From Chrysochromulina tobinii (Eukaryota), in assembly GCA_001275005.1 (NCBI GenBank), contig JWZX01001982.1, positions 1 through 36,143 of the forward strand: a DNA stretch of 36,143 bases, in the 5' to 3' direction. Every line of letters starts with the position of its first letter. The first letter of the stretch is position 1. The notes below the pieces were generated by a model. It was not told the DNA's origin and did no database searches. It saw only the letters and a list, made by a program, of their open reading frames with translations. The translations under genes were made by a program, and so were the position numbers. Shown here one piece after another: positions 1-36,143 of this stretch.

Positions 1-189
1 TGACCGAGGGGAGCGGAGCCGTCCGTCGAGACGGTGGTGGAGTGAGCGTGGGGGGACCGCGAAGAAACTGAACTGAACTGAACTGAAGCTCTCCAAATTT
101 CATCCTTGTTCTCCCCATGGAAAGTTTGCGTCCCGTTTTGGGAAGAAGAAGAGTGCAACGCGAGCTCCATCCACACAGATCGGCCACCT

Positions 190-885
190 ATGAGGGCGTG
201 CACTCGAACTCCACTCCCACTCCTAGAAGGCACGTTGTACAAGGTGCACAACTCGGCACATGGCTTACATCGTGGCGGTAGCCGCTTTCTCGTCGTGGAC
301 GACTTTCACTCCACGCTCACTTACTATCAGGGCACTAAGGCATATGATGCAGAGAGGCCCTCGCGCTCTCTTGGCCTATCAACCGTCACCGCCGTCGACT
401 CGCTCGACGACGATTGCAGCTTCCGGATCATTGCGGCCGCCCGCACGCTCACCCTCCGCGCGCACACCAGTGCCGAGCGCGACGAGTGGGTCGAGGGCCT
501 GAGGCATAGGATCGGAGGCGCCGGCCGTCGTGCATCCTTGCCGGTGAGACCACCAAGCTTGCTGAGAACGGCTCCGCCGGAGGCGAGCGGCTCGGGGGAG
601 TTGGTGGATGCGGGGGAAATGGAAGAGCGTGTCGATGCTTTCTTCTCCCGGCGACGCGGCGAGGTGCCCGAAGAACATGATGAGCCGAAGTCGCCAGTGC
701 CCGGTGCAGACGCCGCGACAGCCGTTCACGTGACCGGTGTCGGCAGCCCACGAACCTCACCACCAGGTAGCGCTCGCCGCTTCTCCTTTGGCAGAGGCAC
801 TCTCATGTGGAAGGCAAGTGCAAGGCGCGCTGCGAGGGACCCGCCGTCGAGGTCGACCGACCGTTGGCGTGGCGTGTACGCGTAG
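190..885 (+). CDS. PH-domain protein
   Basis: From ATG 190: LEGTLYK...RFLVVD...LTYY...SFRII...RTLTLRAHTSAERDEWVEGLR is the PH-domain pattern with the C-terminal Trp helix, followed by a low-complexity tail. Confidence 0.8.
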   Translation: MRACTRTPLPLLEGTLYKVHNSAHGLHRGGSRFLVVDDFHSTLTYYQGTKAYDAERPSRSLGLSTVTAVDSLDDDCSFRIIAAARTLTLRAHTSAERDEWVEGLRHRIGGAGRRASLPVRPPSLLRTAPPEASGSGELVDAGEMEERVDAFFSRRRGEVPEEHDEPKSPVPGADAATAVHVTGVGSPRTSPPGSARRFSFGRGTLMWKASARRAARDPPSRSTDRWRGVYA

Positions 886-1345: not shown

Positions 1346-3197
1346 TCAGCCCGCGGCCGCGGCCTTGGCCTCCTCTAGCTTTGCGTTCTCGGCCTTCATC
1401 ACCTTGAGATCGGCCGAGATGCGTTCGATCGCCTCCGCCGTGTTGCGAGCGGTGAGCTCCTGCACCTGAGCTTGAACCGTCCCCTCCTCGGCGTTGCAAT
1501 TGGAGATCTCCTGCACGTGCTCAACCAGCCGCCCGAAGGAATCATGCAGCGCGGCCACAGCCTTGTAGCACTGCTTGGACGACGCGTTCTTCTTCGCGTC
1601 TTGGAACACAATGTCATCTGTGGCGGCAAAGGAGCGCTGTACCGTCTCCGAGAGCCGGTTGACTTCCATTCGGCTCTCGCGGATGTCGGTCAGGATCTTT
1701 TCGATGCCCACCTTTTGCTTGCGCAGGTTGCGCACCACATCTTGAATGCGATCCGTGTAAGTCGAGCGTACCGCCCCCTTGGCCTTCGCGAGCTCCTTAT
1801 TGAGGCGTACCGAAGTTTCGTCACGCTCGGTGAGCTCGGCCACGATCACCTTCATCTCGGCACGCAGCTGCTTGACTTGCGCCATCTTGAGCACCGACCC
1901 CTCCCGGCGCTTCTCGCGTACCCGCTGCGCATCCCTGATCCGCTGCAACAGCGGCGCGCGGTGCGCCTCCCACTCCTCTGCCAATTGCATCAGAGCCGCA
2001 GCTGTCGTCGCGGAGGCCTTCGTCAGGCGCGACCGGGATCCCTCGGGATCCGTCGCGAGCTCGAGTGCCTTGGCGCGCGACGCGTGCGCCGCGCCGCGCT
2101 TCGCCGCCTCTGCCGCCTCGCGCGCCACTTCCGCCTGTAACTGACGGATCGTGCCCGTCAGGGCCGCCTCGGCCTCCACGGCAGCCTCGTGTGTCCGCCT
2201 CTGCTCGTCGATGGCACGGCTGATGCTCTCGAGCTCCTCGCGCACCTGCGGCAGAGGGGATGGGGGGGGGAGGGGAGGGGGCGGGGCACATTGGAGATAG
2301 GGGGTGGGCCTCGAACAGGGAACAGGTGGGCCAGGGGCTTCAATCAAGGGGAGGTCTCTGGTCTTGAGGCCTCCTTGTCGACTTCGTCACCTGCAGGAGC
2401 TTGTCACGTTCCGCGCGCTCGGCGCGCTGGGCGGCCGTCTCGGTCGCAGCTGCCTCCGACGACACCGCCTCGGTCGCCACCGACGACTCATGACTGAACA
2501 TCGCCGCGTGCGCCACCAGTCCGCCCTTCGATCCAATGATGCTGATGCCTGCGACCGCGGGCCACACCCACTCGGCCCTGCCGAAGCCGCCTTCCTTGGC
2601 GTTGGAGGCGCCACCCTTGCCGCCGGTCAGCCGCGCCTCGGCGGCCGCCTGCCGCTCTGCCTTGCGCGCCGCCGCGAGCGCCGAGGCCGCGAGTGCAGTG
2701 CGCAGGTGTGACGCGCGCTCGGGCTCGATGGGCTTCCGTGCACTCCATGCGGGTGGCGCCCACGGCTGCTCGAGGCCGCGCACGAGCGCCTGACGAAGCT
2801 GCTCGTCAAAGCTCAGCACGCTCAACCCACCCATGTCCCCTTCGCCGTCACCATCCGCCTTTGGCATCTGGTCGATCAGGAAGAGCAGCATGTTGCGCGT
2901 CTCCTTCTCCGACGGGTAGAGGAACTGGTTGAAGCCGATCTCGCCATCAAAGCCGTTGGCAGTGATGGCCGCGGCGAGCGCGGTGCACGCGCGGAACCGT
3001 GCGCCCGGGTTGCGCGGCAGCTTCACGGGCAGCCGCTCCACTTCACCCTTCTCCTGCGCAATCGCATTCAGACAGGTCGCACACGCTGCCACGAGCACCT
3101 CGGTCTCGAAGCCGCCGAGGTTGGAGGTGCCGACGGGGATGTCGACGCCCGCCGAGCGTAGGAAGGTGATCACCATGTCATCCGTGGTCTCCGCCAT
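1346..3197 (-). CDS. CCDC22: Coiled-coil domain-containing protein 22 (CCC/Commander complex subunit), 2 exons, about 568 aa
   Basis: Exons 3197-2391 and 2245-1346, with a phase-0 GT-AG intron at 2390-2246. The N-terminus (ARFRACTALA...IGFNQFLYPSEKETRNMLLFLIDQMP) and C-terminal coiled coil (RSTYTDRIQDVVRNLRKQKVGIEKILTD...TDDIVFQDAKK) match CCDC22. Confidence 0.88.
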
Positions 3198-3419: not shown

Positions 3420-5274
3420 ATGTCGCTCTTGCAGCCGATCCCCACCCCCCCGCCAGGCCCAGTATCACCTGACGTTGACGATCCTACGAGTCCCTTCGCT
3501 GCCGTGAGTTCAAGCACCGACCTCTGGGCGATGGTTCTTCAGCATGTGCCCCTGCTCGACCTACCCCGTTGTGCTTCCACCTGCCGAGCCCACCTCAGCT
3601 TAATGGAGGAGCTCACACGCCACATCACTCATCTTGGGTTGAGTCTCGCACACCGATGGGCGAAGGGCGAGCCCATCTCCTCGTCAACGCCATACGTGTG
3701 CCTGATCCCCGCTGAGAGTGCCAACGACTTTGTGCGTGTACTTCCGCCGCAATCGTTCGACAACTACGTCAGCATCTACGATGGGCGTGGGCTCGTGCGG
3801 CCCATCTTGCCACGGGTTACGGCGATCATGCCCCATCTCACCCATCTGTGCATCGACCTGACTCTTGGCCTGCCCGAGCAGAAGGGCCAAGGTGCCTTCC
3901 CGCCAAACGAATTCAATCCGCAGGACTCAATCGACTATATTCGTCGCTTGAACTCGGAGGTGGACCATCTGCTCGAGGGGCTGAGCTCAACTGCGCCCCA
4001 CCTTCACGCGGCCCGATCCCCGGCGGAGACTGGTCCTGAGCCCGAGGCGATCCTGCCGATGCGCACGCTCACGCACTTGGCCATCACGGCCGAGGCGGGC
4101 TGGGAGTGCAAACGTCGACGGCAGAAAGAGACTAACGAGAAGCTCGTGGGCATCTTCCTCTCGTGTGCGATCGGCTCGCAGCGCACCCTGCGGCATCTCG
4201 ATCTGACCGGCTTGGGTCCGGCGCTCATACATGGGCTTGAAGGCCTCGAGTTGCCTAATTTGGAACTCTTGCGGGTCGGTCATGAAGCTCCAGGTGTGGA
4301 AGGGAAGCCGGGGCCAGCATTTGCCTGCATGTGCTCACCACGTCGCCTCGCTCTTCCCCACAGGCCAAAGGGAAGCCGGGGAGCTCCAGCGTTTGCCTCC
4401 GAACGCGTTGTCGTTCCTTGCCAAGAGTTTCCCCACACTCACCGCACTCGATGTGGGCTATGCGAGCGTGCAAAGAGGGGTCTCCTTCGAAGAGGTCGAT
4501 CTCCTGTGCCGGCGGTGCGACCGGCTCCGCCACTTGGACCTCTCCATGGTAATGACCTACGTCGACTTCACGCCGTGCCTGCTCACCTTGAGCAAGCACG
4601 CGCCGCAGCTCGTCTCTCTCGCCATCCACGGCCTCGAGATGCAATCGTTCGCCCTCTTGGCGTTTGGCATCGGCTGCCCGCTGCTGATCCGTGTCTATTT
4701 CAGGCACTGTGAACTCGCGCCCAACGGGCTGCTCGCTTTCCTGCGCGTGGCACGCAACCTGCGCGAGATTGATCTCTCCAACGACGTCGCTGGGCACGAA
4801 GAGCCGCATGATGGCGTTCACGAGCCGTTCATCGTGCCCAACGACCTCATCAGTAACTGGCTCGACGAGGCAGCGGCCGACCCTACGAAGGGCGCCCAGC
4901 TTCGATGTGTGTACGGCACGGCCATCGGAGACACCGAAGCTGTTTCAACGCACCCGGGTACTGATACGCAAGTCAAGCTCGTGCCCGCCAAGTGGCAAAA
5001 TGTGCGGCTGCCGGATGTACGACTCGAGGGTGCCATCATGCAGGCCAGGCGAAATGACCCCAAGACGTCGAGGGATTGGTGCCTCAAGGCGCTCTACGTG
5101 AGGTCCGGGCTGTTCCGGCTCTTCCACAACATTGGCGAGGACCATATGCACCCCGGCTCGCGCGCCGGTGGCGAGCAGCTGCAGCCCTGGAGTGGCAAGC
5201 GGATGGTGGCCCCATGGCACCTCCTCTATAACATCGCCGAGGGAATGAATGAGCATGCTCAGCAGAGGGGCTGA
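3420..5274 (+). CDS. F-box and leucine-rich repeat protein, 2 exons
   Basis: F-box-like DLWAMVLQHVPLLDLPRCASTCR, and LRR units LRHLDLTG, LTALDVGY, LRHLDLSM, LREIDLSN. A 70-nt GT-AG intron (4294-4363) joins ORFs 3420-4712 and 4231-5274 in frame. Confidence 0.8.
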
Positions 5275-6022: not shown

Positions 6023-9000
6023 CCGTTACATAAAAACTTGCAAACCCCCAAAGTTTTCGGACAGGTAAAAGTCAATGCCAATGGTGCTGGACGTGAGTTC
6101 GGCAATCCCTCGTGCGGGCGCGCATTACCCAATGCCCTCGTCGAGCCCGATGGCCTGCTTCGCCCGCTGCTTCGCACGCCCATACCACGCTGCTCGGGGC
6201 CTCGGGAGACAGGCGTTGCGGCAGCCTCGACTGCGCGCCGTGGTCGCTGCGAGCGTTCTCGACGCGCCCTCGCGCCACGGCCGCCGCGGCCACCCGAGCT
6301 CCGAGGGGCGTGTGGGCGCGCTGCATGCGCGCCGCGACAGAGTGCGCGCCGCCGCCTCCCGAGCGTCACAGCGGAGCCGCGCGTGCCCCCCCCGAATGCG
6401 CAGGTGTCCGAGCGGGCAAAGGCTTGTAAAGCGCGGCGGACGCGATGAGCGACTCGATGGGCAAGGCCGTGTTCGAGGCCGCAAGGTACGGCAACGAGGC
6501 GGAGCTCACGCGGCTGATCGGCCTTGGAGGGAACGTCAACTGGCGCAATCCTGATGTGGTGCGCCGCCGCATGTGCCTCGCGTGGGCGCCCGCGTCCTCG
6601 CCGCCTCTGCTGCTTTCGCCGCCCGAGACGGCGCCAGTTCCCCAGAGCTCGCTGTACAGCGCGCTGCGGCGCTGGCTGCGCCGCCACCCCGCCGCCCCGC
6701 CGAGCTTGGCACACGCGTCCTCGTCGCATGGCGCGCGCCGCACCCCCGCGTGCTCGCCCACGCTCCTCGCGTGCTCTGGCATTCGATGACTCCGCGTGTG
6801 CTTCATTTGCCCAGCACGGAGGCACAGCTCTGATGTATGCCTCAATCAACGGGCACGAAGGGTGCGTCTGCATCCTCCTCGCGTCCGAGGCGATCGAGGT
6901 CAACGCCACGGTAAGCCTCGAGCATGCCCTCCCCCAGCACATGCGATGGATCCGCTTCCATGGTGTCATGTCATTCTTGGCCTCTCTTTTATCTTCAGGA
7001 GGTCAACCGTTGGACAGCATTGCATTACGCGGCAATCGAAGGCCGCCTCGCGATCGCCAAGCGCCTCCTCGAAGGGGGCGCCGATCCGACGCTTGGAAAC
7101 AATGTCGGCATGACGGCCCTCGACTACGCACGGCGGGAGGGCAAGAGGGCGAAGAGCGAGGTCGTGGCCCTGCTGAGCGAGCCCAGGTACGCGATGAAGA
7201 CCGAACGACGGAAGCGAACTCGAACGCAGCGGCCGCGCCACAGACAGCGCCCCGACGCACGCTCAGGCGCGCGCTCAGGCGCACTCTGGCGCACTCAGGC
7301 AGCACTCACAGGCAGCACTCAGGCAGCAATCAGGCAGCACTCACGAGCAATCACGAGCAATCAGTAGCACTCGGTCGACCCACGCCGTCGCCCCACGCCG
7401 TCGCCCTCGGAGAGGGCGCTGCTGCCACCACTGCCACTGACTGCCTTGCCAGCTTCACGATCACCCTTCGCAAGCCCTCGCGCTTCCTGATTGCATGCGA
7501 TGGCGCGCCGTGCTGGGCGCCACTGCACAGCGCCAACTGCGTGCGTTCCCCGTGCGCTTCGAAACAGGGATTGGAAGGCGGAGGCGTGCTGGAAGGCGGC
7601 GGCCAACAAGGCGAAGGCGGCCTTCGCAAGGTATGGCTCGGGGCTCGGGGTTTTCTCGCATTTCCCTCCCTCCTAACCCCTGTGATGGCCTTCTGTTCCT
7701 TCCTAAGTTGACTCCCTCCCGTGACTCATCTCGGATGGGCTGCCCCCGCTCCCTCATCCCATCCATCTCGCGCATGCAAGTGATCACCACGGCGTCTGTC
7801 TCCCTCCTCCCCTCCCCCTCTCGCTCCCATCCCTGAGGGCCACTCTAAGTGCTGTGTATCCATCCCTCTCGCGCAGGCTCGGCTTCGGCCTCGCCATTCT
7901 CTATCTCTTACATATGGCTCGCATCGCCGTGGCCCCGCCTGAGGTATCCGCCACTGCGGCATTGTACCAGGAAAGAGGGGGAGGCACGGCCCCTCGGAGC
8001 CCTCCTTTTCCTCCGTTTCCTCCGCCGCCATCACATCCGCCACCACCACCGCCATCCCCATCGCCTCCGCCATCCCCATCGCCTCCTCCTCCAACAAGGC
8101 CAATCCCATTGCCTCCTCCACCGCCTTGGCCTCCCCCACCGCGGCCATCTCCACCTTCGCCTCCACATGCACCATCACTATTCGCGCTCTTCGTCTCCGA
8201 TGACGCTGGCCTTGTTTCGGAGCAGCTAGAGGATGCGCTGCTGGTCCTCATGGTGCTGCTTGCGGTGTGCTTTTGCTGCGTGTCCTTTGCGCTCAGCTCC
8301 TCTCATGAGGTCGAGGCAACGCCGCGCAACGACCTCCCCAAGCCGGCCGTCCTCCCCGAGCCGCGCAACGGCCTCCGCGGCTACGCGCCGCTCGAAGAGA
8401 AACATGTGATACAGGTGGAGGAGGACGGCTTCGCCCTACGGGCTCTTCTGCCGGATGCCGATGCACTCTTGCTACAATCGCTCGAGGCGCTGCTCCAGAC
8501 AGAGCACCCAGAGTGGCTCGGAAAGGGCCAGGACGTGAAGAAAAAGTACGGCGAGTACGACTCGCTCAAGCTCGCGTGTGCGTGGAAGGTCGACCATCCA
8601 AGCAACCTGAAAAAGTACACGACCGGCGTGGAGCGCGTGCAGGAAGAGCTCAAGCGGCTCCAGAAGAAGGGCAAGAATGTCTCTTATGTGCCCGGCCTGC
8701 CCGTGAAGACGGATCGTGCGCGCGGCTTCACCCTCTCGCAGGCTTGCAATGAGGTCATCCTCTTGCATGGTGTCAACCCAGATCGGCTTCTAGACCTGCT
8801 GTCCACGGGCCTGAACGAGCACTTCTCAGGCACCGGCGCGGGCACCGCCTTCGGCGACGGCGTCTACCTAGCGGAGGACGCTGGCAAGACGGATCAGTAC
8901 GTCGGCCCCGACAGCGCGTACGACCCAAGCAGTGAGCTGCACAAGTGGCTGTACAGCGAAACCGTGCCCCACCCGGAAGACGTCCTCTACGTTCTCGTGG

Positions 9001-9522
9001 TGCGCGCGGCCCTCGGCTTCCCCGTGCGCACGCAGCGTACGCTGGACAATTCGAAAAAGGCAAAGACACATGACCTTCGAGCCGGACGGGTCAAATCGAT
9101 GGACGATGGTGCGCGCATCTTCCCCGTCAACTGCCGTGAGCTCTCGGCGGTGCCGGGGGTCATGCCACCAATCTTTCACCATTCGCTGATTGCCGAGCTG
9201 GGCAAGGATCTCATGCGCTACCGCGAGTTTGTTCTCTTCAACAGCAACTACGTGCACATCGACTACGTCATCGCATACCACCGCTACAATGGCGGCCAGA
9301 AGCTGCGTATGACTGACAGTCCCGTATGAGGCTCACAATCAGGCATAGCAAGTTCTGGACGCCGGCCAGCTTACGCGTGCTGGCGAGGAAGCCGGGAGCC
9401 GGGCATGCGGTCCATGGAGCCAGGGGGGGTACGGGGGGGGGCGTCTCGCGGTCGTCGCGTGTACGAGTGAATCGAATTTATCCAAAACGGAGCCGAGCTA
9501 CCCTGATCCCTGTTAGTGTTAC
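6023..9522 (+). repeat. Dispersed duplication, copy A (paralogous to 29541-34373)
   Basis: Alignable by eye from CCGTTACATA.AAACTTGCA (6023/29541) through the upstream region, exons, most introns and 3' flank to GAATCGAATTTATCC...GTGTTAC. Confidence 0.95.
6445..9329 (+). CDS. Ankyrin-repeat / TM / Pro-rich / TM / PARP-like ADP-ribosyltransferase protein, copy A (5 exons, about 637 aa)
   Basis: Predicted exons 6445-6558, 6815-6910, 6999-7186, 7568-7630 and 7877-9329. All introns are GT-AG with compatible phases (0,0,2,2), and the splice sites are conserved in copy B. Ankyrin motifs TALMYASINGHEGCV, TALHYAAIEGRLAIAKRLLEGGADP, TALDYA. TM ALLVLMVLLAVCFCCVSFAL. PARP signature LLHG...FGDGVYLAE...YREFVLF. 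Confidence 0.75.
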
Positions 9523-11368: not shown

Positions 11369-11591
11369 CTTGGAAGCGAGGAGTGAAATTGATGTGTGAA
11401 ATCATGTTCTTCTCTGAAAACATTGGGCATATGCTCGCAGAGCGGGAGATTCTCGTTTCGGAAGACCCCGAATTTCGCAAGTTTTCAGGGCGACGCTTGT
11501 GTGCGCGCGGGCCAAAACAAGCTTCAGCTCGCCTCCGTCCGCGCACGCACGGTCGTGCTGGGGTGTAGGCGCGCCGCTGCCCGGAGGCAGT

Positions 11592-14500
11592 ATGCCGCCT
11601 GCTACTAGTCCGGCAGGCAAACGAGCTCAGCAGCCCGCCGCTCATCTACCTGGCGGAAAAACTCAACCGCGGCAAAAGAGCGTCCAGGGGAGCATTCCGG
11701 CCGCACGCCCAGAAGAGAATGTGAGCTTGCCGCCCATAAGAGAGTATGACACGGCCATCGAGTTCAATGATGCCGATTTTGGGTGGGAGCCTCGATGGGT
11801 TGCACCAGTGAATGGCTCGATCATTGATGGGGTGCCACGATCGTGGATGAAGCCATACACGCTGCCATACCAATTGCCGTGTTCCATTCCTCCGCTCGAC
11901 ATGGTTACCATCAGGAAAACATCTATGTTCGTGTTGAGTCCAGGAGCGCTTGCTTCGATGTTTCGACTTCCCGAGAGTGGGACTCCTGTCATCGGCCCAT
12001 CCTGGACGTTTGAGGTGTTCCCCGACCCCGACAATCCTGATCCCGTGAACAAGCCGGAGGACGGCGAAGAGAAAGAAGAAGAGAAAGTACATGAGAAAGC
12101 AGAGAACGGAGCGAAAGATAAGGGGGGTGAGAAGGGTGAGAAGGGCGAGAAGGGTGAGAAGGGACCCGCCGAGGCGCCGGCGGAGGCACTCACAGTCGCC
12201 AATGCATCGGCCGACGGCAGCGCCTCCGAGCCGGCCGACAAGGCAGCTGAGGCCACAACGACATCGCCCGAGCTGACGCAGGCCGATCTCAAGCTTCTGG
12301 ACGAGAAGGCAGAGAAGGCGAAGCACGCCACATCGGCAAAGCTCGCAAAGCAGGCCGCAATGAAGGGTGACCTGAGAGCGAAGAGGCAGTCAGCGCAGCT
12401 GGCCAAGGACGCCAAGGCCGCCGCCGTTGTTGCGCTCCGCGAGGAAAAACGGAAGATCCAGGCCGCCACCCGCATCCAAGCTGTCCAACGCCGACGTGTT
12501 GCAAAGCAGGAGGTGCGGAGCATTCGGAGGGAATTGTGGGCCCGCGGCGTCTTGAAGAAGGGCATCATCCTGTGGCGAGAACGAGGCAGGCGCAGGCTCG
12601 AGAAGCTAGCGAAAGAGCAAGAGTTGGAACGGCAACAACGTGAGCGACGGGCGCAGGAGGCGGAAGCGCGTCGTTTGGCAAAGGAGGAGGCCGCGAGGCA
12701 GAAGGAGGAGCGTGAGAAGGAGGAGGCGGCTGCGCCAGGTGGCGCACGGAGGAAAGCAAAGTTGAAGAACATGATCGACCGAACCCTCGAGGAGCAGAAG
12801 CGGCAGAAGCAGCGCGAAAAGACCGCTCTCGCTGCAAAGGATGCGGCCAGACGTGCGCAGGAGGAGGTGATCGAGGCAATGAAGCGCCAAGTAGAGCTGC
12901 GGGAGGCGGCGCTTCGCAAGCAGGAGGAAGATGCGAAGCGGCAACAGGATGAGAAGATAGCCAGGGAAGCGCAGGAAGCGCAGGACGAACTCGTGGCCTT
13001 TGAGGAGGCTACGGCCGCCATTCACGGCTTTGTAAAGGGCCTTCAGTCCATGGCCTTTATGGGCGATGAGCAGAGAGAACAAATACGCGTTGCCGGTGGC
13101 ATCCAGCCCCTCGTCTCGATGCTCAGCGATACCAATAACGACCAAGCCGCGGCCGTGGCCCTAAGCCACGTCTGCCAGGACAACCAACAAAATTGTGCCG
13201 TGGTCCTGGAGACCGGCGGCTTTGCACCGCTCTTCGCGCTCGCAGACGAGTCTCGAAAGACCCTAGCAGGGCACGGCGAGATGGGGGGCAAGGAAGGGCG
13301 CAAAACTGGTCGCAAGACGGGTCGCAAGACGGGCCGCACCACAAGCCGAAGTAGCGGGGGAGCAGGGGAGGTGAAAGTAGATCCTGAGCAGGAGCGCCGT
13401 GATCACAAGCGTATCATCATCGCGGCCACCAACATCGCGCGCTGGCCAAACCGGAAATGCCAGGACGCTGTTCGTGAGGGCGCCGGCATTTCGCTGCTCG
13501 TGAGTTTGCTGCCGGGTGGGCCGGACAATGATGTAACAGCCGCGGCCATCCAGGCTCTGCGGCAGGTGACCTTCGAAAATGTGGCCAACAGCGACGCGAT
13601 ACGAGAAGCTGGGGGCATCCGTTGGTTGATCTTGCTTCTGACCGCGAGGCATGCGCATCCTGTCGCGATCGATGCTGCAGCAACGCTTGCCCAAATCTGC
13701 GTCGGCAACCCTACCAACCAAGACGCAATTCACGAGGCCGGTGGCACTCGCTCACTGATCGGATTCCTCTCGGCAGACGTCAAGTCTCAGGGCCTCATTT
13801 GGGCTGCACGTGGCCTTGCAAACCTGTCGCGAGACAACAGCACCAACCGCACCTACATCTCGGAGCAGCAAGGCGTCATTGCGCGGCTTGTGGACTTGCT
13901 GAGCGTGGGCCCAACATCCGAGGGCGCGCATTGCGCGGCAGATGTTCTGCGCTGCCTCATGACTGGTCACGATGATCGTGTCGCCGTCGCAGTACTCGCA
14001 GCGCTTCGTCGACAGGGCGTGGGCCTGGGCCCTGATGCTACGTTCGCCTTGTCCGAAGCGTTTCCCGAGCTGCTTCAAGGCCTGGCACATGCTGTAGAGA
14101 TGAGGCTTGCGGCGTCCATGAAGAGAGGCACCGATCGAGCTCTTGTTCAAATGGCCTTGAACGACGCATTCTCTCTGGGAATGCCAGAGGAGATGTTATC
14201 CCAGGCACAGCAATGGCTGGACTCAATGGAGGCCGCGCGCGCTGAGGCCATCGCGGCACGAAAGCTGCTGGCTCGAGTCAAGAAGGATGCGAATAAAAAG
14301 GGTGGAAAGAAAGCGGGTGACAAGGACAGGGCGGCAGGGCCGGAATCGCCTTCCAAAGCCGAGATGGACGGATCTCATGGATCTCGGGGTGACGAGCAGA
14401 GTACGCGCCAACCACCACACGATGAGCAGCAGGGCGCGCCAGGAGAGAACCCCAAGGATAGCGACGCAATGGAGGGCGGCGCAGGAGAGGATGCAGGAGA

Positions 14501-14978
14501 GGATGCAGGAGAGGAGTCGGTGCAGGAGAGGAATAAGGGCCGAGACAAAGAAGGCAGGACGAAAGACGGCGGCTCGAAAGACGGCGGCTCGAAAGACGGC
14601 GGCTCTGGCACTGGCCTCCAGCAGACCCAACCAAACGTTGCGTCGTCCGCCGCGCTGACAGCACTTCTGGAGTCACAACAGCGCCTCGCCGCCGAGTTGG
14701 CTTCCCTGCAGCTCGCGGCGGCCGCGGCGCAGCGTGCCGCGCGCGTGGCGGCGAAGGAGCGCAAGGAGCGCTCACGCAGTGGTCACGCCATTACGCCGAG
14801 TCAGCGGCGGGAGCGTTTGGCGACAACGGTTGCCGCCAGAAGCACCCGCCGAGGCAGTGTCGAGTCAGCTAATACGGGCGACGATCTCCATTCTCAGGTG
14901 GGCGACGAGTCTTTTACGTTGCCGTCGTCCCCCGAGAAGATCTCTCCAGGTGCTCAGACCTTTCTGTCTGGTATCTAA
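11592..14978 (+). CDS. IQ-motif, coiled-coil and armadillo-repeat protein (about 1128 aa)
   Basis: Uninterrupted ORF with IQ-like AATRIQAVQRRRVAK, an E/K/R-rich coiled coil, and ARM repeats (IRVAGGIQPLVSML, VREGAGISLLVSLL, IREAGGIRWLILLL, IHEAGGTRSLIGFL). Confidence 0.85.
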   Translation: MPPATSPAGKRAQQPAAHLPGGKTQPRQKSVQGSIPAARPEENVSLPPIREYDTAIEFNDADFGWEPRWVAPVNGSIIDGVPRSWMKPYTLPYQLPCSIPPLDMVTIRKTSMFVLSPGALASMFRLPESGTPVIGPSWTFEVFPDPDNPDPVNKPEDGEEKEEEKVHEKAENGAKDKGGEKGEKGEKGEKGPAEAPAEALTVANASADGSASEPADKAAEATTTSPELTQADLKLLDEKAEKAKHATSAKLAKQAAMKGDLRAKRQSAQLAKDAKAAAVVALREEKRKIQAATRIQAVQRRRVAKQEVRSIRRELWARGVLKKGIILWRERGRRRLEKLAKEQELERQQRERRAQEAEARRLAKEEAARQKEEREKEEAAAPGGARRKAKLKNMIDRTLEEQKRQKQREKTALAAKDAARRAQEEVIEAMKRQVELREAALRKQEEDAKRQQDEKIAREAQEAQDELVAFEEATAAIHGFVKGLQSMAFMGDEQREQIRVAGGIQPLVSMLSDTNNDQAAAVALSHVCQDNQQNCAVVLETGGFAPLFALADESRKTLAGHGEMGGKEGRKTGRKTGRKTGRTTSRSSGGAGEVKVDPEQERRDHKRIIIAATNIARWPNRKCQDAVREGAGISLLVSLLPGGPDNDVTAAAIQALRQVTFENVANSDAIREAGGIRWLILLLTARHAHPVAIDAAATLAQICVGNPTNQDAIHEAGGTRSLIGFLSADVKSQGLIWAARGLANLSRDNSTNRTYISEQQGVIARLVDLLSVGPTSEGAHCAADVLRCLMTGHDDRVAVAVLAALRRQGVGLGPDATFALSEAFPELLQGLAHAVEMRLAASMKRGTDRALVQMALNDAFSLGMPEEMLSQAQQWLDSMEAARAEAIAARKLLARVKKDANKKGGKKAGDKDRAAGPESPSKAEMDGSHGSRGDEQSTRQPPHDEQQGAPGENPKDSDAMEGGAGEDAGEDAGEESVQERNKGRDKEGRTKDGGSKDGGSKDGGSGTGLQQTQPNVASSAALTALLESQQRLAAELASLQLAAAAAQRAARVAAKERKERSRSGHAITPSQRRERLATTVAARSTRRGSVESANTGDDLHSQVGDESFTLPSSPEKISPGAQTFLSGI

Positions 14979-15108
14979 ATCGTGGTGTTATAATCACCCA
15001 TTCTACGAAATAGGATCTCCATGACTCAAACAAAGAAGTACTGAGAGAAGAGATACAATCATTGCTGTGAATGTGAAGCCATCGCGTCGCCCTGGGCAAC
15101 ATCCTTGG

Positions 15109-15885
15109 ATGGCCGACAATGAGGACAAGCTGGGCGAGCTGAAGAGCCTCCTTGCTTGCACGAAACCTGCCGGCCTTCCGTGCCTTATTCGTGCCTTTGG
15201 ATCGGTGGATCGCTGCCTCCGCTGCTTCCTGCGCGCCATTGACGGTAACGCTGCCAAAGCAGCTGCGCGCATTGAGAGCACGCTGGCCTTTCGGAGGGAG
15301 CAGCGCCTCGATGAGTATGCGTGCAGGGCCGACTTGGAGAAGGCCTTTGAGTCGCACCCGCTGCGTGGACACCTGCCAGTGGCCTTTGCCGGCACGGCTC
15401 CCGATGGCACCATCATTCAGTATGCGCGGATGCGAAGTATGAACATGCGCGAGCTCGTTGCTGCGTCGAATGAGGGCGAGCTGCGCCGATTGGTGGCCCT
15501 CTGGCTCGAGTGTGCGCTGCAGCTGCAGGGCGAGAGCACCCGAGAGCGTGGCGAGCCTTGCAAGGGAACGTACGACGTCTACGACATGAAGGGCACGAAT
15601 ATGTGGAGCCTCCTGTGGGATGCGAAGGAGACGAGGCATGTCATCGGGCCCGTGCTTACGATGGGCGAGGCGCACTTTCCTGAGAACCTGTGCAAGTGCT
15701 TCGTCATCAACGCCTCCTCCCTCTTTGGCGCGATCTGGAAGATTGCGACGCCCTTCTTGTCACAGCGCACAGTGGACAAGGTGTCGATTTCGTCCAGCGT
15801 GCCCACGGAGCTGGTGAACGTTCTCGGCGGGCCTACCAAGGTGCACGAGATGATGGCGAGCGTGCCCGAGAGCAGCGGCGCCTGA
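15109..15885 (+). CDS. CRAL-TRIO (Sec14-like) lipid-binding protein
   Basis: LRCFLRAIDGNAAKAAARIESTLAFR (CRAL-TRIO N-terminal domain), then VYDMKG...HFPENLCKCFVINASSLFGAIWKIATPFLSQRTVDKV. Confidence 0.9.
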   Translation: MADNEDKLGELKSLLACTKPAGLPCLIRAFGSVDRCLRCFLRAIDGNAAKAAARIESTLAFRREQRLDEYACRADLEKAFESHPLRGHLPVAFAGTAPDGTIIQYARMRSMNMRELVAASNEGELRRLVALWLECALQLQGESTRERGEPCKGTYDVYDMKGTNMWSLLWDAKETRHVIGPVLTMGEAHFPENLCKCFVINASSLFGAIWKIATPFLSQRTVDKVSISSSVPTELVNVLGGPTKVHEMMASVPESSGA

Positions 15886-16537: not shown

Positions 16538-18824
16538 TCACTCGATGGGTCTCACCTTGTCGCCGCTGGCTGCGCTGGCAAGTAGCACCTCTGCGTCGGC
16601 CGCACGCCGGTCACGAAAGATGTCCTCATCGATCGAATTGGCGACGAGGAAGCGGTAGAGCTGCACCGTGCGGCTCTGGCCGTATCGGCGAACGCGCCCG
16701 ACTGCCTGCGTGTCGCAGGACGTGTACTCTTGCTGCGAGCCCACGAGCAACGGATGAACGAAGATGGCGTGCGAGGCGGCCGTCAAGTTGGCACCCGCTG
16801 CCGACTCGTCGCGCAGGTTGAGCAGCAGCACGCGCGGCTCTCCCGCCTTGAGCTCCAGCTGCTGGAAGTTGTCAATGATGCTCGAGCGCTGTAGCGGCGT
16901 ACCCACAAGCATCACGGCGGCCACCTTTTGCTCCTTGAGTGCGTCGGCCACCTGATGAGGGGGAGCGCAATCAGAGGCACTCAGAGGCACTCAGATGCAC
17001 TCAGATGCAATCAGATGCAGTCAGAGGCAGTCAGAGGCACACTCAGAGGCGCTCAGAAGCACTTGGAGGTACTCAAGGGCACTCGAGAGCACTCGTGAGC
17101 ACTCAAGGGCGAGTCGGCCACCTTGAGGAGAAGGTCTGGGAATTGAACGAAGATGAGCACTCGTTCCTCGGACGGCAGGCTCTTGACCAGCCGGACGATA
17201 GACGCAAGCTTCACTCCATACGAGGTCGAGCCTGCCTGCGCCGAGGCACCCTTTGCAGAGCTCACCTCGTTGCCGAGCTCCGCGACGGAGATGACACACG
17301 AGGGATGCGCGGGCGCCTTGCACCCGGGCTTGATGCACATCTGCTCGGCCGCCGCACGGAACATGGCGTCATACTCGCCCACGTGGCCGCAGCACGAGAG
17401 CACGCCCGTGCGCCTTGCCCTTGCCCCCAAACTTGGCCACGGCGTCGGTGGGATCCATCTGGAGCTTGCGCACATTCTCAAAGAAGCGGAGAGAGCGCAC
17501 TCGTCCGGTGACCTCTTTGGTGAGTCGTCGGAGCAGGTGCACCTGGTCGCGCGTCCACGCCATCTTGTCCTTGAGATTCTTCTCCTTCTCGGAGATCTTC
17601 ACCTGGGGAGAGGAAGGGGGGGGAAGCAATCAGATGCCATCCGAAGCCATCTTAGGCGCACACTCGGAGGCCATCCGAGACCATCAGCCACTCCAGATCG
17701 AGTCTTCGTCTTCATCGCACCTTCTTGTCGACCGCGGGTGCGAGGCCCTGCTTGACGAGAGGCCCGAGGAGCTCATTCGCCTCCTCGTCACCGCAGTCGA
17801 GGATCTCGGTGCTCTGCCAGAGCTTGAACGAGAGACCGGGCGAGCACCGAAGAGCGTATTCCTTGTGCTTGTCGCTCATGCCCTTGGTCGGGAACTCGCT
17901 CTCGAATTTCGCGATGCAATTGCGCGCGAAGGTCACCTGCTTGACGAGCTCGGCGGTGCATGCATCGAGCTGGTCCTTGCGCATCGCGATGATCGCGTCG
18001 CACGCGGCGGTGGCCGTCTTGGCCTTGCCCTCCATGTCGAAGTGCGCGCACCGCTTGAGCAGAGCCTCCTCGGGGCACGACGAGCCCGAGAGCACCTGCG
18101 CGAGGCGCGACTCGCGGTCATTCTCGGACTTGCACTTGGCCTTGATCGTCTTGTGGTTGTTCTTCATGTCGAGCGCCTCGAGGTGGTTCTGGAGCTCGAC
18201 GTAGAGCGCGCGCTCCGCCGCAGGCAGCGCGATGCGCACCGCCTGCTCGCGCCATGGGATCTCGTCAATCTCGGCGATATTCTGGCGCACGAAGAGGTCG
18301 AGGAACTGTTGGGCGGTCGCATGCCGCTCCGCGTACCACGCGGGCGTGTGCACGTCGCGAAAGTATTGGAAGCGCTCGACGGATGTGAGCGATTTGTTTT
18401 CAGACTTGGTCAGGTCGGTCGCGTCCGCCGATCCGAGGCGAAGCCCGAGCCACTGCGCCGTCTCATTGACCGCCGCGAAGCCCGAGATGTCAGGCGTGCC
18501 CGAGAGGACCCAGCGTGCACTCGCCTGGAGCCCGTTCACGATGGCGATCACATCGCGCTCCTTGTTGTACGTGTACTCATCCACCACGAGCCGATTCCAA
18601 TAGAAGAGCTCGAGGGGCGCCGCCTTGAGCGACGTGTAGTCCTTGTCAGCTTTGCCTTGGAAGAGGCCCCAGGGATCGGCCTCCTCTGCCTCCTCGATAG
18701 TCTTGGTGAGCTTGGGGGCAGCTGCCTTCTTCTTGGGCGGCGCCTTCTTGCGCTTCTTGCCGGCGCCGCCGTCCTCGTCCTCCTCGTCCTCGTCGTCCTC
18801 GTTGTCCTCGTCGTCCTCGTCTTC

Positions 18825-18872
<48 letters not shown>

Positions 18873-22947: not shown

Positions 22948-22978
<31 letters not shown>

Positions 22979-25978: not shown

Positions 25979-26176
25979 GTGCGTCGAGCGCCCGCAAACG
26001 ACGGTACTCGTGGTGATACGCGCCAAAAACGAATGTCGAGAACACGAAAACGTCGTCGCGGGCGTTCGATGACGCGCCGAAGTATACAGCAAGCCGCCCT
26101 GGCGTTCGCAACCGTGTTCAGAAAGTTTGGGGGCTTTCTGCCGATAGTTTCGTCACGAGACGCGACCTTCAGCAAT

Positions 26177-28929: not shown

Positions 28930-29994
28930 GCAATTAGTACACGTTTCTGACGTTTCGTGTACAAATCCCTCCAAGTCGTGTATGTTAGTCGTGTGGCGTA
29001 TTAATAGACGAGAGTTCGGGCTTCGGCGTTTCAGGGGCTATTCTTGTTTCTCGTCGCTTAATAATTACGATTTCGGTATCTAGTATCGCCTATTCGATTT
29101 CGGGGTGCCCGCACGAGTAGTGCTTGGCGGCCTCGGCACCGCACGCACAGCAGCCGAGCCGCAGCGTAGAGCGTTTCGTGAGTTTTTCGTCGTTAGCTTG
29201 GTTGCTTTCATGCTTTCTGTGAAATTATAATATTATATTAACCAGTCGATCTGAAAACTCACAGAGAGACCGCGGGGAACCAAATCCTTACCGGATCCAC
29301 AGGCACGACATTGGCCCTTAACATGGCCCAGAACGCCTTGGTGTTCCGTTGCGCGTTAGCGGGCGGGTGCCGCTGCCCGGCTAGGCTATAGTTGACAGTG
29401 ACTCTGGTATGTGTAGACTATGTGTGTCCCGGCTCGGTAAGAGAGGCTTGTTAGAAAGAAACCATACCGGTCCGGCGGCTGGTCGTGCTATGCCGAACCG
29501 GCTCCCCCGGTGTCTTTTTACCGGTACCGGTAAGCACAGACCGTTACATACAAACTTGCAGAACCCCCAAAGTTTTCGGTGTACCATGGTACATTCGGAA
29601 CAGGGTAAAAGTCCTTGCCAATGGTGCTGGACGTGAGTTCGGCAAACCCTAGGCAAACCCCTCGTGCGGGCGCGCATTACCCAATGCCCTCGTCGAGCCC
29701 GATGGCCTGCTTCGCCAGCTGCTTCGCACGCCCACACCACGCTGCTCGGGGCCTCGGGAGCCAGGCGTCGCGGCAGCCTCGACTGCGCGCCGTGGTCGCT
29801 TCGAGCGTCCTCGACGCGCCCTTGCGCCACGGCCGCCGCGGCCACCCGAGCTCCGAGGGGCGTGTGGGCGCGCTGCATGCGCACCGCGACTGAGTGCACG
29901 CCGCCGCCTCTCGAGCGTCACAGCGGAGCCGCGTGCCCCCCCCCAATCCGCAGGTGTCCGAGCGGGAGAAGGCCTGTAAAGCGCGGCGGACGCG

Positions 29995-32900
29995 ATGAGC
30001 GACTCGATGGGCGAGGCCGTGTACAAGGCCGCAAGGGACGGCAAGGAGGCGGAGCTCAGGCGGCTGATCGGCCTTGGAGGGAGCGTCAACTGGCGCAATC
30101 CTGAGGTGCGCCGCCGCATGCCTCGCGTGGGTGCCCGCGTCGTCGCCGCCCCTGGTGCTTCGGTCGCCTCGCCGCCGACACGGCGCTCGCCCGACACGGC
30201 GCCATGTCCCCACAGCTTGCTGCACGGCGCGCGGCGGCGCTGGCTGTGCCGCCGACCCGCCGAGCTCGGCACACGCGTCCTCGTCGCATGGCGCGCGCCG
30301 CACCCCCGCGTGCTCGCCCACGCTCCTCGCGTTATGGCACTTGAGGACTCCGGTGAGGACTCCGGTATGCTTGTTGTGCCCAGCACGGATCCACAGCTCT
30401 GATATCGGCCGCAAACCACGGGCACGAAGGGTGCGCCCGACTTCTCCTCGAGTCCGAGGCGATCGAGGTCAACGCCACGGACGTAAGCCTCGAGCGTGCC
30501 CGCTCCCCAGCGATGGGTCCGCTTCCAACCTTCCATGTGTCGTGATTTCGTTCGTCTCCTCCCTTCTGTCTTCAGAACGGCGGAAGCTCAGCTCTGCATG
30601 GCGCGGCATACCACGGTCACCTCGCGATCGCCAAGCGTCTCCTCGAACGAGGCGCAGATCCGACGCTCCGAACCAATCCGAGGCTCGGAACCAAGCGCGA
30701 CTGGGGCAGCAAGACGGCCCTCGACAACGCAAAGAGGCAGAAAAAGTGGGAGGTCGTGGCCCTGTTGAGCGAGCCTAGGTACGCGGATGAAGACCGACCG
30801 ATGAAAGCGAATCGAACGCAGCGGCCGCGCCGTCTTGGGCACACGCCGTCGGCGGATTGCTGGCCGACGGCGAACAAACGGCGGCGACTCGCCATTGGAT
30901 GCGGCCGAGAGGACGCGACGGCCGACATGCGTCGCGTCAGAGTGCCTTGCAATTGCGCTTCCTTCCCAGGCGATGATTGATGCCGAGTGGGCGCGTGCCC
31001 AGCGCGCCGTGATGGGCACATCGGGAGTCGGCGGCACTGGCGGCCTGGGTGGCCACTCTCGTTGCGGCTGAGTTTGGCCGCACCGGCCGCGCCAAACGCT
31101 GCTGCCACTGCCTCTGGCTGCCTTGCCATCTTCACGACCACCCTTCGCAAGCCCTCGCGCTTCGTGATTGCATGCGACGACGCGCCATGCTGGGCAAAAT
31201 TGCTCAGCGCCAACAGCGTGCGTTCGCCCGTGCGCTTCGAAACAGGTGGGACACGGCGGCGGCCGCGAGAGAGGCGGAGGAAAGGGCGGCGGCGGCGGAA
31301 AGGGCGGCGGCGGAAAGGGCGGCGGCCGAGAAGGCAGCGGCGGACAAGGCGGCGGCCGACAAGGCGATGGCGGCCTTCCCTTGGTACGGCTCGGGGCTCG
31401 GGGTTTTCTCGCATTTCCCTCTCTCCTAACCCCTGTGATGGCCTTCTGTTCCTTCCTATGTTGACTCTCTCCCGTTTGCAATCCCGTGACTCATCTCGGA
31501 TGGGCTGCCCCCGCTCCCTCATCCCATCCCTCTCCCATCCCTCTCGCGCATGCAAGTGATCACCACGGCGTCTGTCTCCCTCCTCCCCTCCCCCTATCAC
31601 TCCCATCCCTGTGATGGCCACTCTAATTGCTGTGTATCCATCCCTCTCGCGCAGGCTCGGCTTCGGCCTCGCCATTCTCTATCTCTTACATATGGCTCGC
31701 ATCGCCGTGGCCTCGCCCGAGGTATCCGCCACTGCGGCATTGTACCAGAAAAGAGGGGGAGGCACGGCCCCTCGGAGCCGTCCTTTTCCTCCGTGGCCTC
31801 CGCCGCTATCGCCTCTCCCTTCGCGGCCTCCGCCATCGCCTCTCCCTTCGCGGCCTCCGCCGCCATCACATCCGCCATCACATCCGCCACCTCCACCGCC
31901 ATCCCCATCGCCTCCGCCATCCCCATTGCCTCCTCCGCCACCACCACCGCCATCCCCATCGCCTCCGCCATCCCCATTGCCTCCTCCTCCAACACGGCCA
32001 TTCCCATCGCCTCCTTCACCGCCTTCGCCTCCCCCACCGCAGCCATCTCCACCTTCGCCTCCACACGCGCCATCACTATTCGCGCTCTTCGTCTCGGATG
32101 ACGCTGGCCTTGTTTCGGAGCAGCTTGAGGATGGGCTGACTGTCACCGAGCAAGGCAAAGTTGCTGTCGGTGCGGCGGTCAGCGCGGCTACCGTTGCGGC
32201 CACGGCGGCCGTCCGCGCGGCCACCGTAGCGGCCACGGCGGCCACGCCGTACGTCTCCGCCGCGGCCGAGTCCATCAAGCTCGGTGACAACAAATCGTTG
32301 CTTGACGCGTATACGGGCATTCCGGCCGAATACCGGCCCGCTGTGGCCGTTGCGGTGCTCTTCTTCTTCTTCTTCTGTTTGCTACTGATGCTTCTGATCT
32401 GGCTGCCTGCGTGCGTGATGTGGCTTTACGGCTACGTGCGGATCGATCCCGATCCGCCGATCCCGATCCGCCGATCTAAGAACCGCTTCGCCGGCTTCGC
32501 CGTGCCACGCGTGATCACAATCGATATGTTGGAGGAATACAAGCGCCGAGTGAAATCGCTGGTTCCAAAAGGCATCAAGTACGAAGACTACTTCCCCCCA
32601 ATCGTTCTGTCGTATGCTTCGGGCCGCCGCCCCGACGATTGCGAAGGCTCCGGGCCCGGCGTGGTGTACGTCATGGGGCTGGCCGAGTTCCTCCATGATC
32701 GCGGCCTGCGGTGCTTCTCCGGGCTGCAAGTGCCCCCAGGCGTGGACTGGCAGACCTTTATGCTGCGCCTGACTGGCGAGAACGGGAAGCGTGAGAAGCC
32801 CAAGGTGCTCATCGTCCTCCTCACTGCGGCCTTGTACCAGTCCGAGCCCTGCCTGAAAGAGATTGACACGGCTATAAGGCAAGAGATACCCATCCTCCCA

Positions 32901-34055
32901 GTGCGTTTCGAGGATGATTTGCCCGGCAACACCGAGCAGTGGACAAATCTCAAGGGTGCGGAGTGGGAGATGCGGAAATTTCGAGTGCAGGAGAAGCTCA
33001 ACTCGCTCAACAACATCCCCAACCCCGGCACAGTGCTCGACAGACCCAGTGCTCTGGATGACATCATGGCGGAGCTCGATGCACGTGGTCTACCGGCATT
33101 GGCTGAGCCAGTGCCGGATGGCCAAGTGCAGGAGAACGGCTTCGCCCTCCGGGCTCTTCTGCCGGAGACCGATGCACCCATGCTACAATCGCTCGAGGCG
33201 CTGCTCAAGACAGAGCCTTCAGAAGAGCTCGGCACGGGCAGGGACGTGTCAAAAAAGTACGGCCCGTACGACTCGCTCAAGCTCGCGTGTGCGTGGAAGG
33301 TCGACCATCCAAGCAACCTGGACAAGTACACGACCGGCGTGAGGCGCGTGCAGGAAGAGCTCAAGCGGCTCCAGAATAGGGGCAAGAATGTCTCCAATGT
33401 GCCCGTGAAGACGGATCGTGTGCGCGGCTTCACCCTCTCGGAGGCTTGCAATGAGGTCATCCTCCTGCATGGCACCAACCCAGATCGGCTGCTAGACCTG
33501 CTGTCCACGGGCCTGAACGAGCACTTCTCAGGCACCGGCGCGGGCACCGCCTTCGGCGACGGCGTCTACCTCGCGGAGGATGCTGGCAAGACGGATCAAT
33601 ACGTCGGCCCCGACAGCGCGTACGACCCGAGCAGTGAGCTGCACAAGTGGCTGTACAGCGAAACCGTGCGCCACCCGGAGGACGTCTTCTACGTTCTCGT
33701 GGTGCGCGCGGCCCTCGGCTTCCCCGTGCGCACGCAGCGTACGCTGGACAATTCGAAAAAGGCAAAGACACATGACCTTCGAGCCGGACGGGTCAAATCG
33801 ATGGACGATGGTGCGCCCATCTTCCCCATCAACTGCCGTGAGCTCTCGGCAGTGCCGGGCGTCATGCCAACAATCCGTCACCATTCGCTGATTGCCGAGC
33901 TGGGCCAGGATCTCGTGCGCTACCGCGAGTTTGTTCTCTTCAACGACAACTACGTGCACATCGACTACGTCATCGCATACCACCGCTACAATGGCGACCA
34001 GAAGCTGCGTATGACCGACTCAATGACCGACTCAATGACCGACAGTCCCGTATGA
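29995..34055 (+). CDS. Ankyrin-repeat / TM / Pro-rich / TM / TIR / PARP-like ADP-ribosyltransferase protein, copy B (5 exons, about 983 aa)
   Basis: Predicted exons 29995-30105, 30384-30482, 30576-30778, 31246-31383 and 31655-34055 (GT-AG, phases 0,0,2,2). Ankyrins STALISAANHGHEGCARLLL, SALHGAAYHGHLAIAKRLLERGADP. TM AVAVAVLFFFFFCLLLMLLIWLPACVMWLYGYV. TIR IVLSYAS...LAEFLHDRGLRCF...VPPGVDW...KVLIVLLTAALYQSEPCLKEIDTA...IPILPVRFE. PARP LLHGT...FGDGVYLAE...YREFVLF. Confidence 0.78.
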
Positions 34056-34129
34056 GGCTAACAATCAGGCAGAGCAAGTTCTGGGCGCCGGCCCAGATTA
34101 CGCGTGCTGGAGAGGGAGTCTGAGAGAGG

Positions 34130-34295
34130 GAGCCGGGAGCCGGGCATGCGGTCCATGGAGCCAGGGGGGGCGTCTCGGTCGGGAGAGCCGCGGGAGCCGG
34201 GCATGCGGTCCATGTGGAGCCGGGGGGGGGGGTCTCGGTCGGGAGAGCCGGGAGCCGGGCATGCAGTCCACCAGGAGCCGGGGGGGCGTCTCGCG
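34130..34295 (+). repeat. About 60-nt tandem repeat (3 units) downstream of copy B
   Basis: GGGAGCCGGGCATGCRGTCCA..GGAGCCRGGGGGG.GTCTC occurs three times; copy A has a single unit (about 9388-9447). Confidence 0.85.
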
Positions 34296-34655
34296 CGGTC
34301 GTCGCGTGTGAGTGAATCGAATTTATCCGAACCGAGCCGAGCCGGCCCTGATGCTGTTCCCTGTTCGTGTTACACTAAGCGAAGTGACCAAAACGATAAC
34401 GGTGTGACCGGGTACCCGCGCATCCCGGATCCCCCGCTCCGCTTCCCGCGGGTGCGCGGGGACCTGACCGTCTGGGCACGTCGTGTGAAACCGTGTGATA
34501 TCGTATACGAGCGAAACACGTATCTATACGATAATCTAAGTTCACCACGAGATGGTCCCCGCGTCCAATGGGGCAATGCGCAGGGCGGGCGGGTAGAAAG
34601 TCGAGTGCACTGGTCCCACCAACTAAGGCTGGGTTGTAGTCTCCTAGTCTCTGAG

Positions 34656-35963: not shown

Positions 35964-36143
35964 GCGGCTCGCCGCGCCGATGCACGGCGGGTGCTCGTGT
36001 GGCGACAAGAGAGGGCCGGCTGTGGGAACATGCCTTTCAGGGCCGGCCGCGCGTTAACCCCACCGTGAAGAGGGGAAAACATGGGAAAAGAAGAGAACCC
36101 ACTTGTTACGAAGACACCCGGCCCGTCGCCGGGGCGGATACAG

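Follow-up and report, generated by a model that had tools for sequence, protein, structure and literature searches.

Several described protein systems use the domains considered here. NLR sensor/helper pairs are encoded by linked genes, typically head-to-head, with one partner disabled; tankyrases (ANK-SAM-PARP) carry a long ankyrin array in five clusters; and enzymatic TIR domains carry a conserved Glu in the helix that follows their third strand. A part in immunity is established for TIR domains (PMC11249213, PMC9503650), the shuffling principle is already known from fungal NLRs (PMC4986451), and the SAM filament of tankyrase activates its catalytic domain (PMC9712121). Here we analyzed 36,143 nucleotides (nt) of Chrysochromulina tobinii DNA (contig JWZX01001982.1; this whole stretch is called the window), which holds two related genes, A and B, both ending in a PARP-type domain and only B containing a TIR. 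We call the different transmembrane (TM) pieces of A and B alpha and beta, respectively. Comparison with relatives indicates a haptophyte family of separately assorting modules, in which A and B probably arose from an alpha-TM-TIR-PARP gene by two in-frame events.

Toll-like and other TM-TIR receptors have the order stalk-TM-TIR, as does B; A and B differ from Toll-like receptors in having no LRR ectodomain, and B in keeping the Glu and in the PARP fused downstream. The likeness to fungal NLR repertoires lies in near-identical modules on different partner domains, in ANK domains and TIR/HET-type effectors, and in paralogue turnover, whereas the A/B family has no NACHT/NB-ARC and has a predicted membrane anchor, a C-terminal PARP effector and a shuffled TM piece (PMC4986451). 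No Pfam match to NACHT or NB-ARC was found in the last exons or in the other exons scanned (exon 2 of both genes and exon 1 of B, each <40 amino acids, were left unscanned), and the predicted proteins leave no room for such a domain. Combinatorial domain assortment among close paralogues, as in NLR/STAND receptors, is present among the relatives described below. The first-pass annotation of this DNA had suggested modular shuffling of the NLR kind; the shuffling stands, and is wider than claimed, but the link to NLRs is only an analogy because there is no NOD domain. With tankyrase, the two genes share N-terminal ankyrins and a C-terminal PARP with the His-Tyr-Glu (H-Y-E) triad, and B has a self-assembly-capable domain before the catalytic one (PMC9712121). 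Here, however, TIR stands in for SAM, there are about 3-4 ANK repeats as well as TM segments, and the similarity is too weak for orthology. We rejected identity with tankyrases, as the ANK exons amount to only ~130 amino acids and no SAM domain had a Pfam match before the PARP of A or B, where there is TIR or nothing. Without NOD and without SAM, A and B are neither NLRs nor tankyrases; the family evolves like NLRs and may, by analogy, work like tankyrases.

Comparison of the window with itself (blastn) identified units A and B as a whole-gene duplication in the same orientation. Positions 8036-8240 pair with 31934-32138 at 94% identity and 8412-9429 with 33123-34170 at 89%, and nothing is aligned between these two blocks. 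Agreement ends near 8235/32133 (DNA similarity runs on to 8240/32138) and resumes at 8412/33123, which leaves a middle piece of 176 nt in A (8236-8411) and of 989 nt in B (32134-33122). The difference of 813 nt equals 271 codons, and the reading frames are open in both. Since the best local DNA alignment of the middle pieces is a weak 49-nt match (score 29), we regard them as unrelated; each contains one strongly hydrophobic 19-mer (Kyte-Doolittle peak 3.0 in A and 3.3 in B). Pfam searches detected PARP in A (E 1.3e-10) and B (E 4.9e-11), with PF00644 scoring 41.6 and 42.9 bits for the two last exons against a cut-off of 26.7, TIR_2 in B only (E 4.2e-08), and Ank in the third exon of each gene. 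Five-exon GT-AG models without stops predict proteins of 637 (A) and 983 (B) amino acids with the order ANK, short coil, hydrophobic segment, proline-rich stalk, TM, (TIR), PARP. Both breakpoints fall inside the last exon of these models, the left one merely 10-15 nt beyond a possible splice acceptor (8225/32123) that closes an in-frame GT..AG proline-rich stretch. The first-pass annotation had described the same boundaries, lengths and preserved frame, unrelated TM segments with one kept in each version, a TIR confined to B, and both breakpoints in one exon, all of which our results bear out.

The named relatives that come closest belong to Chrysochromulina. For the PARP module, 86 homologues of 439-1399 amino acids were found, and their precomputed partner domains include kinase (24), ANK (6), ARM (3) and TIR (3); in most of them similarity begins within a few residues of the point at which A and B rejoin, so that the right breakpoint is a module edge. 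A search with piece alpha returned five proteins, four of them with TIR directly behind alpha. The combinations found were alpha-TIR-PARP (P0001, P0090), alpha-TIR with another C-terminal domain (P0088, P0089), alpha-PARP without TIR (A, P0087 and P0097, in the last of which an alpha-like piece meets PARP at a different join), beta-TIR-PARP (B, P0091, P0092), beta-coil-TIR-PARP (P0100), and a third TM type with PARP and without TIR (P0005, P0011, P0014, P0099). The alpha-TIR join occurs in four clusters, with alpha pieces 75-87% identical to that of A. In P0124, P0127, P0130 and P0132, a Met of its own opens the TIR module at the very point to which alpha is fused elsewhere, so that the left breakpoint is a module edge as well; beta is joined to the module a few residues further in than alpha. 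There are 317 TIR relatives at E<=0.001 among cluster representatives; in the best 36 of the 317, which were scanned for partner domains, we found ANK (3), decapeptide repeats (2) and single cases of kinase, LRR, C-type lectin, MORN, RanBP zinc ribbon, IIGP GTPase, GBP, DUF285 and PARP, and LRR or C-type lectin domains precede TIR in P0140 and P0162. No TIR relative was found in viral contigs, and no PARP relative in the phage collection.

Behind the TIR, in the place of PARP, P0088 (291-476) and P0089 (279-464) carry a haptophyte domain that also occurs in P0135 and P0128. It had no Pfam match, its Atlas matches were unnamed haptophyte clusters only, and we take it to be HET-like by motif. 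P0119, a close PARP relative, has two CCCH zinc fingers at its N-terminus, a combination reminiscent of animal ZAP/PARP12.

Because alpha directly precedes the same TIR in P0001, P0088, P0089 and P0090, TM and TIR are separate modules, and A and B therefore differ by two events. The TM piece, the TIR and the C-terminal domain thus assort independently of one another, and TM and TIR do not make up a single cassette. The first-pass annotation had instead proposed that one event swapped a TM cassette for a TM+TIR cassette between the copies, and, as one option, that the proteins form a sensor/helper or decoy pair. A and B alone would fit this proposal, with their shared flanks, unrelated middles and preserved frame, and they lie on one contig. 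P0088 and P0091, for which the longest contig is reported as equally long, hint that TIR-other and TIR-PARP genes co-occur; such alpha-TIR-other and beta-TIR-PARP genes may lie on one contig, perhaps the counterpart locus in another strain. However, the coming apart of TM and TIR in relatives contradicts a single swap, and nothing points to an NLR-style sensor/helper or decoy pair: the genes are in tandem on the same strand, 23 kb apart and not head-to-head, with at least four unrelated genes between them; both PARPs keep H-Y-E, which gives neither the look of a decoy; and many further members belong to the family. We consider the swap-and-pair proposal very improbable. Between A and B the change is indeed, as that annotation claimed, a replacement and not just a deletion; set against a gene of the P0001 type, however, A looks as if it had simply lost the TIR.

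In the history we favor, the ancestor would be an alpha-TM-TIR-PARP gene, from which A would have arisen by in-frame deletion of the TIR and B by in-frame replacement of alpha by beta. Among 58 proteins with at least 55% identity and a match that began no later than residue 7, QV opens the PARP in 11 of the 12 that bear a TIR but in only 2 of the 46 that lack one, namely A and P0087. A tree was built from 54 PARP modules, limited to those with at least 59% identity and at least 280 aligned residues; in it, a 98/96 clade unites A and P0087 with B, P0001, P0091 and P0092. As the PARP start and the clade of A match those of TIR-linked PARPs, we infer that A derives from a TIR-bearing gene. A quick tree built from 24 TIR modules places the beta-linked ones beside P0001, in a 96% group together with three further alpha-linked TIRs, which points to replacement of alpha by beta in B. 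The same modular family could have evolved in the reverse direction, with the alpha-PARP type of A ancestral and TIR inserted between TM and PARP once or more. The deeper branches of the PARP tree are all without TIR, including the TM-PARP proteins P0005, P0011 and P0014, and the TIR module occurs with its own start codon, as this alternative would predict; yet the PARP of A starts in the TIR-linked form, and alpha is joined to the start of TIR in four clusters with two different C-terminal domains. We therefore regard TIR insertion as rather unlikely.

DNA identity between A and B swings from 96% in intron 4 and 95% in the upstream flank to 82% in exon 3, and is 93.5% in the PARP module. Among the relatives, P0091 equals B over the first 151 amino acids and P0001 over the last 516, and P0090, P0099 and P0098 are patchworks. 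From these sequences we infer the pattern expected from crossover or conversion after rare in-frame joins: new junctions would arise by in-frame illegitimate joins in linkers and would then spread among paralogues by crossover or gene conversion in shared TIR, PARP and intron sequence. No terminal inverted repeats were found at the unit or cassette ends among the 25 longest of 52 and 79 pairs, and no target-site duplication was seen by eye. The upstream end of each unit (6023-6060 and 29541-29663) showed very high summed contig depth in DNA run X1, a hint that the upstream flank of the duplicated unit is common to many loci.

For the ANK exons, in which amino-acid changes are clustered, the comparison of A with B gives a ratio of nonsynonymous to synonymous changes (dN/dS) of 0.94. 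Within the PARP core, amino-acid changes are sparse. Taken together, the ratios for ANK and PARP would fit diversification, but weak selection too. One could view A and B as neutral by-products of a recombination-prone genome, chimeric young genes of little function that drift or decay. This would agree with dN/dS values of 0.72-0.94, with the many one-off joins and with a module order that seems loosely constrained. Against it, every join seen in A and B keeps the frame, their 637 and 983 codons are free of stops, the catalytic residues are kept, changes in the PARP core are few, and RNA libraries from five studies contain members of the family (weak evidence, from contigs only). On balance, neutrality seems quite improbable.

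Some observations weigh against the history we favor. The relatives are proteins predicted mostly from short-read metagenomes, and the crossovers inside shared domains (P0091, P0001), known from protein only, could be assembly chimeras; the alpha-TIR join is less exposed to this risk because it is seen in four clusters. The QV proteins are mutually related, so that 11/12 versus 2/46 does not count independent events, and recombination weakens both the PARP and the TIR tree, for which reasons TIR gain is possible; repeated gain is possible because the TIR-less P0097 and P0099 also lie within the TIR-rich PARP clade. No beta piece without TIR was found (four matches; 7994 candidates of 352-1120 amino acids scored). 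The PARP dN/dS of 0.72 (40.5 nonsynonymous and 17.5 synonymous changes) indicates weak constraint. The first hydrophobic segment is marginal (hydropathy 1.8), splicing of the ANK exons to exon 5 is a prediction of the GT-AG model, and the alpha-PARP join of A is supported by assemblies, P0087 and one X1 contig, the crossings in RNA libraries being of B only.

To assess the reality of the loci, a 21-base pattern from the shared left flank was searched in metagenome contigs and matched six loci, of which five are A or B; the sixth (L005) was rejected as a chance match. Two contigs, one with L001 and L004 and the other with L003 and L006, encode last-exon proteins of A and B that are the same as those in the window. 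These assemblies are probably from the same organism as the window and thus test the assembly, not the biology; neither is shown to be long-read. Library contigs from four of 21 runs were placed on B, and the following positions are from the 32 pieces listed. The left join of B is spanned by a contig of DNA run X1 (31958-32262, zero differences) and by RNA-library contig X14 (31958-32228), the TM-TIR join by X15 (32294-32510), and the TIR-PARP join by X14 (33002-33165) and X15 (33002-33308). Since RNA-library contigs bridge its joins, the cassette of B is not an intron. One X1 contig departs from B at 12 positions over 31948-32138, the same number as A does, and then continues with 270 other letters. 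The first-pass annotation had named misassembly and spliced-out introns as explanations that would undo its claim. Multi-copy flanks do make chimeras possible, and L002 and L006 differ from the window upstream of A by an extra ANK block; but with both loci on one contig in two other assemblies, X1 DNA and X14 and X15 RNA-run contigs across the joins of B, and the join of A repeated in P0087 at 91% identity, the chance of an artefact is extremely remote.

The extra block consists of tandem ANK exons 1-3, in frame upstream of A (L002:2683-3457 and L006:6790-7564; window 6428-7218, one copy), and the single block in the window is either an allele or a collapsed repeat. At the start of piece beta (32138-32268), X1, X14 and X15 contigs show a joint that goes back 131 nt, which suggests a variant or a further paralogue with a local duplication. 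An RNA-library piece covers 31244-31382, exon 4 of B, with other letters on either side. Library depth is greater over ANK and PARP than over piece beta; as this is not a copy number, it was not used. The proline-rich GT..AG stretch is a multiple of three in both copies (282 nt in A, 402 nt in B) and may therefore be a retained intron, making the stalk a possible exitron or site of alternative splicing. In P0123, a gene model made independently for Chrysochromulina parva, the parts between ANK and piece beta follow one another in the same way, but this stretch is missing. RNA-library contigs cross the stretch and its ends, with DNA contamination of the libraries being possible.

The structure model of the B TIR (predicted local distance difference test score 95) matches the TIR folds of SPARTA, RPP1, RPS4 and SARM1, and all listed PDB matches are TIR-containing chains. 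TM-scores were ~0.5 to the query and up to ~0.69 to isolated TIR chains, at 10-18% identity; a PDB sequence search gave chance matches only. E130 is invariant in 60 of 60 aligned TIRs and lies in model helix 125-136, after strand 112-117. B thus shares with the enzymatic TIRs of SARM1, the plant TIR-NLRs RPP1/RPS4 and SPARTA TIR-APAZ the fold and a conserved catalytic-type Glu (PMC11249213, PMC9503650), and differs in its low identity, its position just inside the TM and its fusion to a second NAD+-using enzyme. The fold is of the NADase type, and we predict NAD+ cleavage. In both PARPs, His, Tyr and Glu align with tankyrase-1, the best PDB sequence match of A's PARP (E 7e-4), and the three motifs are kept in 51 of 55 near-complete PARPs; by these signatures A and B carry a PARP-type ADP-ribosyltransferase domain, with predicted activity.

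The two hydrophobic segments would form a hairpin in the membrane that leaves the proline-rich stalk on one face. Because two membrane passes are predicted, ANK and TIR/PARP would together face the cytosol whether or not the stalk is spliced. The ankyrins would bind a partner or substrate. In B, clustering would let the TIR assemble, cleave NAD+ and switch on the adjoining PARP, much like SAM in tankyrase, while A would ADP-ribosylate without a TIR switch. In giant viruses of algae, among them a Chrysochromulina virus, TIR domains occur too (PMC9503650), and such domains are also among the structural matches; this fits an NAD+-centred conflict without showing it. From domains and turnover only, we put a role in defence, most plausibly against giant viruses, at about an even chance.

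The coordinates of the two units and of neighbouring genes are collected below. The large gene with Tudor-like, methylase and SNF2 domains is one that we take to be DNMT5-like by its architecture. Two overlapping frames at 3420-5274 (+) contain LRR-like text by eye, with no Pfam match, and are probably one gene with a short intron or frameshift.

Features of units A and B and of neighbouring genes in the window
Feature	Position	Strand	Basis
Unit A: upstream flank, gene, 3′ flank	6023..9522	+	blastn to 29541-34373
Gene A exons 1-3, ankyrin repeats	6445-6558, 6815-6910, 6999-7186	+	GT-AG model; Pfam Ank in exon 3, E 1.3e-10
Gene A exon 4, short Ala/Lys helix	7568..7630	+	In-frame GT-AG model, predicted
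Gene A exon 5 start, moderately hydrophobic, possible TM1	7877..7943	+	Hydropathy 1.8; same segment in P0123
Proline-rich stalk A, in-frame GT..AG, 282 nt, possibly retained intron	7944..8225	+	Absent from P0123
Piece alpha: TM (~8238-8291) and linker, fused straight to PARP	8236..8411	+	Hydropathy, relatives
Inferred TIR deletion site in A	near 8405-8411	+	Comparison with relatives
PARP-type catalytic module A; His 8766, Tyr 8865, Glu 9225	8412..9329	+	Pfam PARP; tankyrase-1 alignment
Unit B	29541..34373	+	blastn
Gene B exons 1-3, ankyrin repeats	29995-30105, 30384-30482, 30576-30778	+	Pfam Ank, GT-AG model
Gene B exon 4, Ala/Glu/Lys coil repeats	31246..31383	+	GT-AG model
Gene B exon 5 start: hydrophobic segment and proline-rich stalk (in-frame GT..AG 31722-32123)	31655..32123	+	Model; RNA-library contigs cross
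Piece beta: Ala/Thr-rich stretch, TM (~32340-32429), linker	32134..32477	+	Hydropathy, relatives
TIR module with N-terminal helix; invariant Glu codon 32859	32478..33122	+	Pfam TIR_2; fold model
PARP-type catalytic module B; His 33468, Tyr 33567, Glu 33927	33123..34055	+	Pfam; 93.5% DNA identity to A
PH-domain protein	82-885	+	Ordinary neighbour
CCDC22	1346-3197	-	Ordinary neighbour
ARM-repeat protein	11418-14978	+	Ordinary neighbour
CRAL-TRIO protein	15025-15885	+	Ordinary neighbour
Large gene, Tudor-like, C-5 DNA methylase, SNF2 domains	16538-26005	-	
TPR/LRR protein	26174-28929	+	Ordinary neighbour
Alpha/beta hydrolase	34656-36053	-	Ordinary neighbour

In the open-access literature, searched without supplements, neither a TIR-PARP fusion nor this haptophyte family turned up, although large domain-architecture surveys could list the fusion in their supplements; the modular TM-TIR-PARP family is apparently undescribed. 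In its broadest form, which we offer as a tentative and somewhat doubtful proposal, Chrysochromulina-type haptophytes would keep a recombining repertoire of defence receptors that are tethered to the membrane and use NAD+. Four kinds of part would be exchanged in frame: the sensor (such as ANK, ARM or CCCH), the anchor, the TIR switch and the effector, either PARP or the undescribed HET-like domain. The TIR-PARP fusion would couple TIR assembly to ADP-ribosylation, a tankyrase-like switch of which the literature searched gave no example. The resistance of bloom-forming haptophytes to giant viruses is poorly known, and the A/B family offers concrete candidates. It also provides natural versions, with and without TIR, of nearly the same PARP, so that control of a fused PARP by TIR is directly testable.

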